Part shown: positions 2,284 through 57,100 of the stretch, one piece after another
Layout: the number at the start of each line of letters is the position of its first letter
How positions within the stretch are numbered: position 1 is the stretch's first letter
Assembly (NCBI RefSeq): GCF_054482595.1
Contig: NZ_CM137008.1
Reading direction: 5' to 3' (one strand)
DNA: 64,000 nucleotides
Position numbers and translations under genes: made by a program
The notes under the pieces: generated by a model
The model's database searches: none
Seen by the model: the letters and a program-made list of their open reading frames with translations, nothing else
Told to the model about the DNA's origin: nothing

Positions 2284-4716
2284 TTACAACAACTGTGCCA
2301 GCCGGTTGATATCCGACTGAATCGCCCCGGCGGTGACGTCGCGCCCCGCGCCAGGCCCACGGATCACCAGCGGGTTATCGCGATACCAGCGGCTTTCGAT
2401 GGCAAAGACGTTGTCGCACGGCAGCAGTGATGCCAGCGGATGGTCTTCACGCACCGCCTCCACGCCCACACGCGCTTTGCCGTTGGCATCGAAACGCGCC
2501 ACGTAGCGCAGCACCAGCCCCATTTCGCGGGCCGCTTCCAGCCGTTGCACCATCTGCTCGTTAAGTTCATCGCCATTTTCAAAGAAATGGTCGATGCTGC
2601 CGCCTTCGCAATGAGCAGGCACCAGCGATTCCACACGTACCTGGTCCGGTTCAATGTTGTAACCCGCTTCACGCGCCAGAATCACCAGCTTGCGCATTAC
2701 GTCTTTGCCGGAGAGGTCGTCACGCGGATCAGGCTCGGTTAAGCCCTGCTGCCACGCCTGATCCACCAGCTCGGTAAACGGCACGCTACCGTCGAATTGC
2801 AGGAACAGCCAGGAGAGCGTGCCGGAGAAGATCCCACTGATCGACAAAATAGTATCGCCGCTGTCGATCAGATCGCGCACGGTGTGGTTGATCGGCAAGC
2901 CCGCACCGACGGTGGCGTTGTACAGCCAGTGACGCCCGGTTTTTTCGAAGGCGTCGTGGATCTGGCGATATTTATTGCTGTCGCTTGCTCCCGCCAGTTT
3001 GTTGGCACTGATGACGTGGAAACCGTGGCTGGCGAAATCAAGATACTGGTCAGCCAGCTGCTGGCTGGCGGTAACGTCCAGCACCACTAAATCATCATAC
3101 GGATGGGCGCGCATCCACAGGAAAAGCGACTCTTCATCCTGCTCGACCGCTTCATCGTTGAAGAAGGCTAACGCGCGGCTGGCGTCCAGCCCGTCATAAC
3201 TCAACAGACTGCGGCGGCTGTCCACCACGCCTGCCAGCACAAATTCAAAGCCGGTACGCGCCGAAAGCGAGCTCTGCTCGCGGGCGAACAGTTCCAGCCA
3301 GCGGGAACCGATATTGCCTTTGCCGAACAATACCAGGCCGATGCGTTTTTCTGCGCGGAAGACGGACTGATGCAGGCCCTGAATCAGGCTTTCGGTCGGG
3401 CCGGTGCGCAGTACTGCCACCAGGCTGATGCCGTCATCGGACTGCCAGGTAAACTCGACCGGCTGGCCTTTCAGTTGCTGCCAGAAGCGGTGGCAATGCA
3501 GCGGGTTACGGGTGACACCCGCCCCGACCATCGCCACCAGCGCCAGCCCCTGACGCAGGCGCAGTTCGCCAGGTAATCCCGCTTCGTCGAGGATTTTCAG
3601 CGCACTGTCGGCCACTTCTGAGGTGTAGCAAAATTGCAGCAACTGGCGATCGTTATGCACGCCAACCGCCAGTGGACGCACCTGGGCACGTTTCAGGATT
3701 TGGTCGATCTCTTTATGCGCCAGTTTGAAATCCTGACTGGCGGGCACCTGAAACTCAATCAAACAGACATCATCGTGGCTGGTGACAATACGCGCACCAG
3801 TACCGGAGGCCAGCACGCGTTCAATGCGCGTGGAACCTTGATCCGGCGTGTAGCTACAGCGCAGCTGCAGGTCGATTTCGCTGCCAGAAACTGGCTGTAA
3901 AGTACGGGCGTGAAGAACGGGAGCCGCCAGACGCGCCAGTTCGCTGGCCTCATCCAGACGCAGCAACGGCAGCAGGCAGGCATCTTTCACTTTACGCGGG
4001 TCGGCACTGTATACCCCGGCGACGTCGCTCCAGATGGTTACGCGAGAAACACCCGCCAGCGCACCGATTTGTGTCGCGGAATAGTCGGAACCGTTACGCC
4101 CCAGCAGCACCGTTTCACCGGCGTTGTTACGGCTGATAAACCCGGTCACCACCAGACGTTTACCCGGATGTTGTACCAGTAGCTGTTGCAGCAACGGGTA
4201 AGAAAGCCCTTCATCAACCTGCGGTTGCGCAGCGCGTTCAGCGCGTAAAAACTCGCGGGCATCAAGCCAGGCCGCTGGCAGCCCTTGTTGATTAAGTACC
4301 GCAGACATCAGTCGCGCCGACCACACTTCACCGTGGCCCACCACTTCCGCATACACTGCGTCGTTAATACCGCTGTCGAGCAGCGCCGCCAGGCGCTCAA
4401 GATCGCTGACAAAAGCGCTAATGAGGCTATCGGCTTCTTCGGCGGGTAGCAGGCCGCTAATCAGATCGCACTGATAGCGACGCAGCGTTTGTTGAACCTG
4501 ATGCGCAGAGAGACGATCGGTCTGGCTTAGTTTCAACCAGTTAATCAACTGGTTAGTGGTGCTACCGGCGGCGGAAACCACCATCATATCGTCAGGCTGA
4601 GAGTACTCCGCCATAATGCCCGCGACACGCAAATAACACTTCACATCAGCCAGACTACTGCCACCAAATTTATGCAGCTGACGACCTTTCGCCCCTGCCT
4701 GCGCAATCACACTCAT
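2284..4716 (-). CDS. metL: Bifunctional aspartokinase II / homoserine dehydrogenase II
   Basis: 810-aa ORF MSVIAQAGAKGRQLHKFGGSSLADVKCYLRVAGIMAEYSQPDDMMVVSAAGSTTNQL... recognised as MetL. Confidence 0.95.
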   Translation of the reverse strand: MSVIAQAGAKGRQLHKFGGSSLADVKCYLRVAGIMAEYSQPDDMMVVSAAGSTTNQLINWLKLSQTDRLSAHQVQQTLRRYQCDLISGLLPAEEADSLISAFVSDLERLAALLDSGINDAVYAEVVGHGEVWSARLMSAVLNQQGLPAAWLDAREFLRAERAAQPQVDEGLSYPLLQQLLVQHPGKRLVVTGFISRNNAGETVLLGRNGSDYSATQIGALAGVSRVTIWSDVAGVYSADPRKVKDACLLPLLRLDEASELARLAAPVLHARTLQPVSGSEIDLQLRCSYTPDQGSTRIERVLASGTGARIVTSHDDVCLIEFQVPASQDFKLAHKEIDQILKRAQVRPLAVGVHNDRQLLQFCYTSEVADSALKILDEAGLPGELRLRQGLALVAMVGAGVTRNPLHCHRFWQQLKGQPVEFTWQSDDGISLVAVLRTGPTESLIQGLHQSVFRAEKRIGLVLFGKGNIGSRWLELFAREQSSLSARTGFEFVLAGVVDSRRSLLSYDGLDASRALAFFNDEAVEQDEESLFLWMRAHPYDDLVVLDVTASQQLADQYLDFASHGFHVISANKLAGASDSNKYRQIHDAFEKTGRHWLYNATVGAGLPINHTVRDLIDSGDTILSISGIFSGTLSWLFLQFDGSVPFTELVDQAWQQGLTEPDPRDDLSGKDVMRKLVILAREAGYNIEPDQVRVESLVPAHCEGGSIDHFFENGDELNEQMVQRLEAAREMGLVLRYVARFDANGKARVGVEAVREDHPLASLLPCDNVFAIESRWYRDNPLVIRGPGAGRDVTAGAIQSDINRLAQLL

Positions 4717-11235: not shown

Positions 11236-11487
<252 letters not shown>

Positions 11488-11491
11488 CTAA

Positions 11492-13849
<2,358 letters not shown>

Positions 13850-31329: not shown

Positions 31330-31425
31330 TATGCGGCGCGAACGCCTTATCCGGCCTACAAAAGTTTGCAAATTCAATAAATTGCAGAATTCATGTAGGC
31401 CTGATAAGCGAAGCGCATCAGGCAT
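31330..31425. repeat. REP/BIME element between sbp and pfkA
   Basis: tgcggcgcgaacgccttatccggcctaca ... tgtaggcctgataagcgaagcgcatcaggca: inverted REP pair. Confidence 0.85.
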
Positions 31426-32622: not shown

Positions 32623-33525
32623 TTATGAAAGCATAGACCGTTTACCCTCCCTGGGTACGACGGAACAGGGGTCCTGATGGATAATTACATCCGATCCCGG
32701 AAAACGCCGTAAAATAGCCTGCTCTACCTGATCCGCCACCATATGTGCCTGAACCAAAGGCAGAGAGTCTTCCATTTCCAAATGAATCTGAATAAAGCGG
32801 GTCGGCCCTGACTGCCGCGTGCGAAGATCGTGAGCGCCGCTAACACCCGGCCAGGAAGTCACGATATCAATAATTTCTTGCCGTTCCTCATCAGGCAATG
32901 CGCGATCCAGTAATGACTGTACCGCCTCATATCCCATGCGTAACGCGCTATATAAAATATAGATGCCGATTCCCAATGCAAACAGAGCATCGGCGCGATG
33001 CCAGCCGTACCAGGACAACCCCAGCGCCAGCAGAATTGCGCCGTTCATCATAACATCAGACTGGTAATGTAGCATATCAGCCCGCACCGCCTGGCTTTGC
33101 GTCCGGCGCACCACCCAACGCTGAAACGAGACAAGGATAATCGTACAAATTAGCGCCACAATTGTCACGATAACCCCGACGCCTGGATCTGTCATCGGTG
33201 TTGGAGATATCAGATGTTGAATACCCGTCAAAAACAGGAATAGTGCCGAACCGGAGATAAACATACTTTGCGCCAGCGCCGCGAGGGACTCTGCTTTACC
33301 GTGACCAAACGAGTGATTATCGTCGGCAGGTTGCAGGGAATATCGCACCACCAGTAAATTCGTCAACGACGCGCCGATATCCACCAGCGAATCCACCAGC
33401 GCGGCGAGAATACTCACCGACCCGGTATACCACCATGCAAAAATTTTAATCAGCAATAGCAACGAAGCCATCGCCGTCGCAGCAATCGCCGCCCGACTGA
33501 CCAGCCGTCCATAAGATTGATTCAT
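32623..33525 (-). CDS. fieF: Cation diffusion facilitator (Fe/Zn efflux)
   Basis: Recognised FieF begins [49 protein letters not shown]... (300 aa from ATG at 33525). Confidence 0.9.
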
Positions 33526-33607
33526 AAATACTCCCGCTATCAACTGACGCTAGTATAACGGAAGCAAATCATCTGCAATGCATTAAGCAGCAGGCAAATT
33601 GAGGATA

Positions 33608-33668
33608 AAAAAAACCCCCACATCATGTGGGGGAAGACAGGGATGGTGTCTATGGCAAGGAAAACAGG
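33608..33668 (-). ncRNA. cpxQ: Probable CpxQ sRNA processed from the cpxP 3' UTR; 5' end approximate
   Basis: Minus-strand 3' UTR of cpxP ends in CCCCCACATGATGTGGGGG followed by a U-run, matching the reported CpxQ terminator; extent inferred. Confidence 0.5.
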
Positions 33669-33673
33669 GTTTA

Positions 33674-34174
33674 CTACTGGGAACGTGAGTTGCTACTACT
33701 CAATAGCTTCAACGATGAACTTTTTTGCCATTGCGTCACGTCACGCAACTGCTCCATTCGTTGTTGATGTTTCTCGTTTAAAACCGCTTGCTGCTCCGGC
33801 GTTAACAGGCGATACATTTGGTTGCGGACTTTTGCCATCTCAACCTGACGAGCAATTTGCTCATTCGCCATTTTTTCTGCCTGTGCGCGCACAGCGTTTT
33901 CATCAAAATTTTCTGCGGTGACAAGGCGATGCATTGTCTCCAGTTCGCTAACATTAACAGGAGGCTGTTCGTGCCGGGCCTGTTGCATAAGATCTCGCAT
34001 CTGCTGACGCTGATGTTCGGTTAAACTTATGCCGTCGAACATATGGCTCTGCGTACTGCGCTGCGTAAGTTCTTCACCCGGATGCCAGTTATCGCCTGAA
34101 CCGACTTCAGCAGCGTGGCTTAATGAACTGACTGCCAGCGTTGAGGCCATGACGGCAGCGGTAACTATGCGCAT
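33674..34174 (-). CDS. cpxP: Periplasmic stress adaptor CpxP
   Basis: [63 protein letters not shown]... recognised as CpxP (166 aa). Confidence 0.9.
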
Positions 34175-34253
34175 CATTTGCTCCCAAAATCTTTCTGTCG
34201 CGATTCAACGATAGAGAGTTTACGATTCAGGCTGCAAACATGCGTCAGGGGGT

Positions 34254-34268
34254 GTAAAACAACGTAAA
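34254..34268. promoter_or_regulatory. CpxR box (GTAAA-N5-GTAAA) in the cpxP/cpxRA divergent region
   Basis: gtaaaacaacgtaaa: exact tandem GTAAA pentamers with 5-bp spacer between cpxP and cpxR. Confidence 0.8.
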
Positions 34269-36392: not shown

Positions 36393-36490
36393 ACTCCGCA
36401 TTTGTAGGCAGGATAAGGCGTTTACGCCGCATCCGGCATTTGAGCAGGATGCCTGATGCGACGCTGATAGCGTCTTATCAGGCCTACACT
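36393..36490. repeat. REP/BIME element downstream of cpxA
   Basis: tgtaggcaggataaggcgtttacgccgcatccggca ... gcctgatgcgacgctgatagcgtcttatcaggcctac. Confidence 0.85.
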
Positions 36491-45276: not shown

Positions 45277-45600
45277 GCCGGATGCGGCGCGAGCGCCTTA
45301 TCCGGCCTACAGGTCGGCAACAGTTGTAGGCCTGATAAGACGCGACAGCGTCGCATCAGGCATTGATTGCCGGATACGGCACGAGTGCCTTATCCGGCCT
45401 ACAGGTCGGCAATAGTTGTAGGCCTGATAAGACGCGACAGCGTCGCATCAGGCATTGATTGCCGGATGCGGCACGAGCGCCTTATCCGGCCTACAGGTCG
45501 GCAATAGTTGTAGGCCTGATAAGACGCGACAGCGTCGCATCAGGCATTGATTGCCGGATGCGGCACGAGCGCCTTATCCGGCCTACGGGTCGTGCATCCG
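45277..45600. repeat. Tandem BIME array: about 3.5 copies of a 92-bp unit built from REP palindromes
   Basis: gccggatgcggc recurs at 45277, 45369 (as gccggatacggc), 45461 and 45553, period 92 bp; each unit has an inverted REP pair (gccttatccggcctaca / tgtaggcctgataag...gcatcaggc). Confidence 0.9.
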
Positions 45601-54143: not shown

Positions 54144-57100
54144 ATGCAGGTCAGCAGAAGGCAGTTCTTTAAGATCTGCGCTGGCGGTATGGCAGGCACC
54201 ACGGCAGCGGCACTGGGTTTTGCACCCAGCGTAGCACTCGCGGAAACCCGGCAGTATAAACTGCTGCGCACCCGCGAAACCCGTAATACCTGCACCTATT
54301 GTTCCGTAGGCTGTGGGCTGTTGATGTACAGCCTCGGTGACGGAGCAAAAAACGCCAAAGCATCTATCTTCCATATCGAAGGCGATCCGGATCACCCGGT
54401 CAACCGCGGTGCACTTTGTCCGAAAGGCGCTGGCCTGGTGGATTTCATCCACTCCGAAAGCCGTCTGAAGTTCCCGGAATACCGTGCCCCTGGTTCTGAT
54501 AAATGGCAGCAAATCAGTTGGGAAGAGGCGTTTGATCGCATCGCCAAACTGATGAAAGAAGACCGCGATGCTAACTACATTGCGCAAAACGCCGAAGGCG
54601 TGACCGTTAACCGCTGGCTCTCCACCGGGATGCTGTGTGCTTCCGCGTCGAGTAACGAAACCGGCTATTTAACGCAAAAATTCTCCCGCGCGCTGGGTAT
54701 GCTCGCGGTCGACAACCAGGCGCGTGTCTGACACGGACCAACGGTAGCAAGTCTTGCTCCAACATTTGGTCGCGGTGCGATGACCAACCACTGGGTCGAC
54801 ATCAAGAACGCCAACCTCGTCGTGGTGATGGGCGGTAACGCCGCTGAAGCTCACCCGGTCGGATTCCGCTGGGCGATGGAAGCCAAAATTCACAACGGCG
54901 CGAAGCTGATTGTGCTCGATCCTCGCTTTACGCGTACGGCGGCAGTGGCTGACTACTATGCCCCTATTCGTTCCGGTACTGACATTGCTTTCCTGTCAGG
55001 CGTATTGCTGTACCTGCTGAACAATGAAAAATTCAACCGCGAATACACCGAAGCCTATACCAACGCCAGCCTGATCGTGCGTGAGGATTACGGCTTTGAA
55101 GATGGCCTGTTCACCGGCTACGACGCAGAAAAACGCAAGTACGATAAATCCTCCTGGACTTACGAACTGGACGAAAACGGCTTCGCCAAACGCGATACCA
55201 CGCTGCAACATCCGCGCTGCGTGTGGAACTTGCTGAAACAGCACGTTTCCCGCTACACGCCAGATGTGGTTGAAAACATCTGTGGTACGCCAAAAGACGC
55301 GTTCCTGAAAGTCTGCGAATACATCGCAGAAACCAGTGCTCACGATAAAACTGCCTCGTTCCTGTATGCCCTCGGCTGGACGCAACACTCCGTTGGTGCG
55401 CAAAACATTCGTACGATGGCGATGATCCAGCTGCTGCTCGGCAACATGGGGATGGCAGGCGGCGGCGTTAACGCCCTGCGCGGTCACTCCAATATTCAGG
55501 GGCTGACGGACCTGGGCCTTCTGTCGCAGAGCCTGCCAGGTTACATGACGCTGCCAAGCGAGAAGCAGACCGATCTGCAAACCTACCTTACCGCCAACAC
55601 GCCAAAACCGCTGCTGGAAGGCCAGGTAAACTACTGGGGCAACTACCCGAAATTCTTCGTCTCCATGATGAAGGCTTTCTTTGGTGATAAAGCAACGGCG
55701 GAAAATAGCTGGGGCTTTGACTGGTTGCCGAAGTGGGATAAAGGCTACGACGTCCTGCAATACTTCGAGATGATGAAAGAGGGCAAGGTCAATGGCTATA
55801 TCTGCCAGGGCTTTAACCCTGTTGCCTCATTCCCGAACAAAAACAAAGTGATCGGTTGTCTGTCGAAACTGAAGTTCCTCGTCACCATCGACCCGCTGAA
55901 CACTGAAACCTCTAACTTCTGGCAGAACCACGGTGAGCTGAACGAAGTTGACTCGTCGAAGATCCAGACCGAAGTGTTCCGTCTGCCATCGACCTGCTTC
56001 GCGGAAGAGAACGGTTCTATCGTAAACTCAGGTCGCTGGTTGCAGTGGCACTGGAAAGGTGCGGACGCCCCAGGGATTGCGCTGACTGATGGCGAGATCC
56101 TCTCCGGTATCTTCCTGCGCTTGCGCAAGATGTATGCCGAACAGGGTGGCGCGAACCCGGACCAGGTGCTGAACATGACCTGGAACTACGCCATTCCGCA
56201 TGAGCCGAAGTCGGAAGAAGTAGCGATGGAGAGCAACGGTAAGGCGCTGGCCGATATTACCGATCCGGCAACCGGTGCGGTTATCGTCAAGAAAGGCCAA
56301 CAACTTAGCTCGTTTGCCCAACTTCGCGATGACGGTACAACTTCCTGTGGTTGCTGGATTTTCGCCGGTAGCTGGACGCCGGAAGGCAACCAGATGGCAC
56401 GCCGTGATAACGCCGATCCGTCTGGCCTCGGTAACACGCTGGGCTGGGCATGGGCATGGCCGCTTAACCGCCGCATTCTGTATAACCGCGCCTCCGCAGA
56501 TCCGCAGGGTAACCCGTGGGATCCGAAGCGTCAGTTGCTGAAATGGGACGGCACTAAGTGGACCGGCTGGGATATTCCGGACTACAGCGCAGCGCCTCCG
56601 GGTAGCGGCGTCGGGCCGTTTATCATGCAGCAGGAAGGCATGGGGCGTCTGTTTGCCCTCGATAAGATGGCGGAAGGTCCGTTCCCGGAACACTACGAGC
56701 CGTTTGAAACGCCGCTGGGAACTAACCCGCTGCATCCAAACGTTATCTCGAACCCGGCTGCACGTATCTTTAAAGACGACGCCGAAGCATTGGGTAAAGC
56801 CGATAAGTTCCCGTATGTCGGAACCACCTATCGTCTGACCGAGCACTTCCACTACTGGACCAAACACGCGCTGTTGAACGCGATTTTGCAACCAGAGCAG
56901 TTTGTGGAAATCGGGGAGTCGCTGGCGAATAAACTTGGCATTGCCCAGGGCGATACCGTGAAAGTCTCCTCCAACCGTGGCTATATCAAAGCCAAAGCGG
57001 TGGTGACCAAACGTATTCGTACGCTGAAAGCGAACGGCAAAGATATCGATACCATCGGTATTCCGATTCACTGGGGTTATGAAGGCGTAGCTAAAAAAGG

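Follow-up and report, generated by a model that had tools for sequence, protein, structure and literature searches.

CpxQ, which can be regarded as the noncoding branch of the Cpx response to inner-membrane stress, was reportedly described in E. coli K-12 and Salmonella by Chao and Vogel in 2016 and by Grabowicz et al. in 2016. It is a small RNA of approximately 58-60 nt, is Hfq-dependent, and is released by RNase E from the cpxP mRNA; in vitro, RNase E together with Hfq is sufficient for this step, with Hfq both sharpening the cut and shielding the product (PMC9438474). The endogenous RNA is very stable, with a half-life above 16 min, and its repression of nhaB does not depend on the phosphorylation state of its 5' end (PMC10250213). 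Published work places the seed for nhaB and cfa at the 5' end of CpxQ (PMC6755755), and both RIL-seq and CLASH recover the cpxP 3' UTR on Hfq with many targets (PMC5145812, PMC7213987), the CLASH target motifs being G-rich and complementary to two known CpxQ seeds (PMC7213987). When the Cpx system is active, CpxQ lowers Skp and so prevents this protein from placing outer-membrane proteins wrongly in the inner membrane (PMC4817254).

Several other sRNAs are built on the same plan. Like SroC, SdhX, NarS, and GlnZ, CpxQ has a terminator that doubles as an Hfq module, a 5' end generated by RNase E near the stop codon, and a seed at or near that 5' end (PMC9438474); unlike these RNAs, it has a parental gene, seeds, and a regulon of its own, its mRNA is monocistronic, and the sRNA spans nearly the whole 3' UTR. 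In Erwinia amylovora, the Hfq-regulated RNA Hrs1 is 74 nt long, ends in a rho-independent terminator, and lies between cpxP and fieF, co-oriented with both; it was reported to be conserved in the genus Erwinia and not in other Enterobacteriaceae, in a paper that predates the naming of CpxQ (PMC4070566). Because of its cpxP-fieF position, its orientation, and its terminator, Hrs1 is evidently the Erwinia orthologue of CpxQ.

The DNA analysed here (64,000 nt in all, referred to below as the window) is a segment of an E. coli chromosome in which cpxA-cpxR are on the plus strand and cpxP, fieF, and pfkA are on the minus strand. The order along the minus strand is cpxP, CpxQ (33664..33607), and fieF, a layout identical to that of MG1655, and the gene name cpxP was given in all of the E. 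coli records among the matches listed. The features of the locus were as follows:

34254..34268, plus strand: perfect CpxR box, GTAAA-N5-GTAAA, GTAAAACAACGTAAA, in the cpxR-cpxP intergenic region upstream of cpxP
34177..33674, minus strand: cpxP coding sequence (ORF of 167 aa, TAG stop at 33676..33674), encoding the parental mRNA of CpxQ
33664..33669, minus strand: putative RNase E processing site, context CCCUG↓U, the cut placed between 33665 and 33664 from the K-12 annotation
33607..33664, minus strand: CpxQ sRNA (an almost certain assignment), 58 nt, 5' UUUUCCUUGCC ... GGGGGUUUUUUUU 3', 57/58 identical to cpxQ b4716
33652..33664, minus strand: 5' seed, CpxQ nt 1-13, UUUUCCUUGCCAU, invariant in 81 sequences
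33635..33651, minus strand: predicted small hairpin of the MFE fold, nt 14-18 (AGACA) with nt 26-30 (UGUCU)
33607..33633, minus strand: rho-independent terminator from a terminator scan, stem 33633..33626 with 33622..33615, loop 33625..33623, U8 at 33614..33607

With great confidence, we assign window 33664..33607 on the minus strand to the gene of CpxQ, the 58-nt sRNA that depends on Hfq and comes from the cpxP 3' UTR, and the feature is one that has already been described. The MG1655 reference record contains an ncRNA cpxQ (b4716, "small regulatory RNA CpxQ") of 58 nt, which starts 10 nt past the cpxP stop and lies upstream of fieF. This locus resembles K-12 CpxQ in position, length, terminator, seeds, and an upstream promoter region under CpxR control, and alignment of b4716 to window 33664..33607 gave 57/58 identity. 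The single difference was the third base of the terminator loop (nt 42, window 33623), which on the RNA strand is A here and C in K-12; A was also present in nearly all of 80 other species, so that K-12 MG1655 has the minority variant, and no functional difference is expected from this change. The CpxQ core was unique in the window, with no second copy found there, and of 5426 complete E. coli genomes, 5425 contained the 161-nt query region with an identity of at least 95%. Nothing was found that contradicts the CpxQ explanation.

An earlier note, made from the letters of the sequence, had proposed a probable CpxQ in a cpxP 3' UTR ending in a GC hairpin and U-tract on the coding strand, and its reading was borne out on each of these points. 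The hairpin (33633..33615) and U8 (33614..33607) are on the minus strand, which is that of cpxP; the alignment that it had suggested against known CpxQ sequences confined the one change to the terminator loop; and a processed fragment of about 60 nt, the other observation it had called for, is found in published E. coli Northern blots, which show a 58-nt CpxQ arising from longer cpxP-derived transcripts (PMC6755755, PMC10250213). The 3' UTR is 67 nt long on the minus strand, and the segment 33608..33673 delimited in that note is the whole UTR minus its last U.

Following the cpxP stop, the minus strand reads UAAACCCUG UUUUCCUUGCCAUAGACACCAUCCCUGUCUU CCCCCACA-UGA-UGUGGGGG UUUUUUUU. The terminator hairpin, CCCCCACA-UGA-UGUGGGGG at 33633..33615, has 8 pairs, 6 of them G-C, closed by a 3-nt loop and followed by UUUUUUUU at 33614..33607; this terminator is presumably also the Hfq-binding 3' module of CpxQ. 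The 67-nt UTR folded at -17.4 kcal/mol (z = -2.35 versus shuffles). Upstream of the terminator, the loop and 3' side of the predicted internal hairpin hold the second C/U-rich seed, CCAUCCCUGUCUUCC. All 5 pairs of this internal hairpin were invariant, and covariation neither supports nor contradicts it. Two plus-strand ORFs antisense to cpxP, 33625..33921 (98 aa) and 33627..33767 (46 aa), both begin within the CpxQ terminator; these are mechanical products of ORF calling and almost certainly not genes.

To assess conservation independently of the UTR itself, cpxP loci from 80 other Enterobacteriaceae species were fetched by protein similarity (CpxP 71-100% identical) from genera including Escherichia, Citrobacter, Salmonella, Klebsiella, Enterobacter, Kosakonia, Raoultella, Kluyvera, Franconibacter, and Atlantibacter, giving a joint alignment of 81 sequences. 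The element was located immediately after the cpxP stop in every one of the 80 loci, and the core at 33660..33630 was identical in all of these species. In the joint alignment, window 33664..33634 was invariant and 33669..33665 was 98-100% conserved, with 57-97% conservation per 10-nt block over the last 150 nt of cpxP and 22-65% in the downstream spacer past the U-tract. Conservation sets in at CCCUG, immediately ahead of the annotated 5' end, and covers the single-stranded 5' part, which is more than a plain terminator would require. Variation within the element was confined to the terminator stem and was compensatory: 98.7% of stem cells were paired, two pairs showed compensatory changes (A-U / U-A / C-G at one and C-G / U-A at the other), none of 500 shuffles reached the covariation score, and slid registers of the stem all fell to 41-61% paired.

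These patterns bear directly on the possibility that the segment serves cpxP solely in cis, as its terminator and 3' UTR, and gives rise to no trans-acting RNA. A terminator is certainly present, and hairpins of this kind occur in the region at about chance frequency (2 terminator-like hairpins in 1.1 kb, against 1.0 +/- 1.1 in shuffled sequence), so that the case for a feature beyond chance is made by the identity to an annotated sRNA and the extreme conservation, not by the hairpin alone. A terminator, however, needs only a stem and a U-tract, yet the 27 single-stranded nt upstream are invariant in 80 species while the codons of cpxP and the interior of the stem vary. In addition, deletion or over-expression of cpxQ has been published to alter the expression of Skp, nhaB, and cfa (PMC6755755, PMC10250213, PMC4817254), and a stable 58-nt species and the loss of regulation in seed mutants have already been published for K-12 and Salmonella. 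On this evidence, we consider a purely cis-acting role very improbable.

We give similarly little credence to the idea that CpxQ is a primary transcript with a promoter of its own inside the cpxP coding region. Internal promoters do occur among 3' UTR sRNAs, MicL and DapZ being examples. A consensus scan of the minus strand from 33665 to 34177, crude and restricted to sigma-70, nevertheless revealed no sigma-70-like site within cpxP. Mutation of the conserved RNase E cleavage site abolishes CpxQ in vivo while leaving the cpxP mRNA little affected (PMC9438474), and in E. coli, constructs with an upstream start still yield the 58-nt species by processing (PMC6755755), both of which argue for processing over independent initiation.

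The locus itself is consistent with CpxQ being released from the cpxP mRNA by RNase E. The sequence around the cleavage site was identical to that of K-12, and the cut is followed by three U residues (+1 to +3), in keeping with the RNase E motif RN↓WUU, in which U at +2 is the key determinant (PMC5222698); position -2 was U, not the preferred purine. Further upstream, the CpxR box at 34254..34268 was the sole match with zero mismatches across the 64-kb window. We take GTAAA-N5-GTAAA to be the established CpxR consensus, and the cpxP promoter of this window would, at the sequence level, fit CpxR control. Under envelope stress, then, CpxA/CpxR would become active and CpxR-P would drive the cpxP promoter, yielding an mRNA predicted to end at the intrinsic terminator 33633..33607. 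Hfq, bound to the terminator and U-tail module, would first guide and then block RNase E, and a cut at CCCUG↓UUUU, 9-10 nt past the stop, would free the stable 5'-monophosphate RNA that is CpxQ. From the literature, we infer that in this strain, too, the RNA is cut out by RNase E, binds Hfq, and represses its targets.

Once released, the single-stranded C/U-rich 5' end and the second C/U-rich stretch of CpxQ would pair with G-rich sites in the nhaB, skp, cfa, agp, ydjN, and fimA mRNAs, and this pairing would either block ribosome binding or promote decay by RNase E. The expected outcome would be reduced synthesis of inner-membrane proteins and of Skp, with the CpxP protein made from the same mRNA acting in the periplasm. 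For three of these targets, the energies of the predicted duplexes were only modestly better than those of shuffled sequences. With the seed alone (CpxQ nt 1-13), the duplex with skp covered -18..-6, in the Shine-Dalgarno region, at a dG of -15.9 kcal/mol (7 of 500 shuffles as good), and that with cfa covered -136..-127, which is the published site, at -14.1 (20/500); the result for nhaB, at -17..-5, was weaker, with 63 of 500 shuffles as good as its -15.1. Duplexes computed with CpxQ nt 1-40 were long and loop-filled and did no better than shuffles for nhaB (170/300) and skp (231/300); among the three mRNAs only cfa stood out in that comparison (1/300).

The 3' part of cpxQ also coincides with a bacteriophage attachment site, which in this window is unoccupied:

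33604..33650, minus strand: empty att core (47 bp) of Wphi-type P2-like phages, equal to CpxQ nt 15-58 plus AUC (3 nt)

In approximately 835 of the 5426 E. coli genomes, the match to our query broke 3 nt past the U-tract, and about 15% of complete E. coli genomes have a P2-like prophage or integrase directly past cpxQ. Strain ATCC 8739 has a 32-kb P2-like prophage (int ... ogrK) between cpxQ and fieF, with perfect 47-bp direct repeats, identical to window 33650..33604, on either side (positions 573-619 and 32987-33033 of our locus L083). The same 47 bp were present in phages Wphi, fiAA91-ss, and R18C, in several P2-like phages of Yersinia and Salmonella, and in a circular 32-kb episome; positions 3001-3045 of our locus L084 are also assigned to this core. 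Among the loci of the 80 other species, 6 had a P2-type integrase gene directly past cpxQ. A separate set of loci had neither a P2-type integrase match nor fieF within 1.5 kb downstream of cpxQ, namely L024-L026 (Citrobacter spp., from about 2070 onward), L004, L007, L015, L021, L039, and L040; some of these are short contigs, and in others a different insertion may occupy this position.

The phage site between cpxP and fieF is known, because E. coli W was reported to carry Wphi1 at "cpxP-fieF" (PMC3032704); in the open-access literature, we found no paper linking this Wphi site to CpxQ. Integration regenerates an intact cpxQ at attL. Since the att core takes up the 3' three-quarters of cpxQ, the phages themselves have an exact duplicate of its second seed along with the Hfq/terminator module. 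In the ATCC 8739 lysogen, this copy (L083, 32987-33033) follows the phage ogr gene at a distance of about 110 nt, in the same orientation. A phage might accordingly express a truncated mimic of CpxQ, as the 3' end of an ogr transcript or by read-through at attR, and so tap or titrate the Cpx/Hfq network of its host, although we regard this as unlikely. If true, it would matter only after lysogenisation, the site in the window being empty.

With the core of Wphi-type phages coinciding with 33650..33604, it could be asked whether the conservation reflects a DNA-level attachment site and not the function of an RNA. The host has nothing to gain from keeping attB, however, and phages for their part tend to use sequences that were conserved beforehand. 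The block of conservation also runs 19 nt beyond the core, to 33669, taking in the 5' seed and the cleavage site, while the 3 core bases past the U-tract show poor conservation among the species (17-95%). We therefore attach next to no probability to this explanation and retain CpxQ as the reason for the conservation. The copy of cpxQ in this window changes nothing that is known about the sRNA; its value lies in a correctly placed annotation and in the reminder that prophages integrate at what is also an sRNA gene.

Such an annotation is easily missed. The earlier note had cautioned that an ORF-only annotation would overlook CpxQ, and the PGAP E. coli records among the 60 matches listed do name only cpxP at this position. 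At gathering thresholds, Rfam 15 gave no match at the CpxQ locus. A permissive Rfam search returned RF02628 (Hrs1) on the plus strand at 33607-33679 with 44.5 bits (E 3.9e-7), below the gathering score of 56.4; the other permissive matches at the locus, such as RyhB, NsiR1, and OmrA-B, were rejected as terminator-driven noise. In the RF02628 consensus, an initial A7 precedes a reverse-complemented terminator, and for this reason the model appears to have been built on the wrong strand. Once the consensus is reverse-complemented, it has the CCUUGCCA and CCCUGUCU motifs in common with CpxQ, and the differences from the Hrs1 model are that CpxQ scores below its threshold and lies on the opposite strand. 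Because the sole related model is on the wrong strand and matches below threshold, pipelines based on ORFs and Rfam omit CpxQ. That the functional RNA is instead on the plus strand, as the orientation of this one Rfam similarity would have it, is extremely improbable given the sub-threshold score, a consensus that starts with an A-run and an inverted terminator, the cpxP/fieF orientation of Hrs1 in its source paper (PMC4070566), and a hairpin that on the plus strand has no U-tract behind it.

Several other structured elements were present in the window. Matches at Rfam gathering level were found for ES036 (CssrF) at 31361-31402 (+), between sbp and pfkA, for the ClpQY promoter element at 16119-16176 (+), and for the L31 ribosomal-protein leader at 11455-11507 (-). 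A strong SECIS_3 selenocysteine insertion element (84.3 bits) was located at 54726-54784 (+), presumably in fdoG judging by map position relative to cpxP. Four naRNA4 (CssrE) or REP-type elements were also identified, one at 36407-36484 (+) and three on the minus strand at 45329-45399, 45421-45491, and 45513-45583, the latter forming a tandem array with a spacing of approximately 92 bp.
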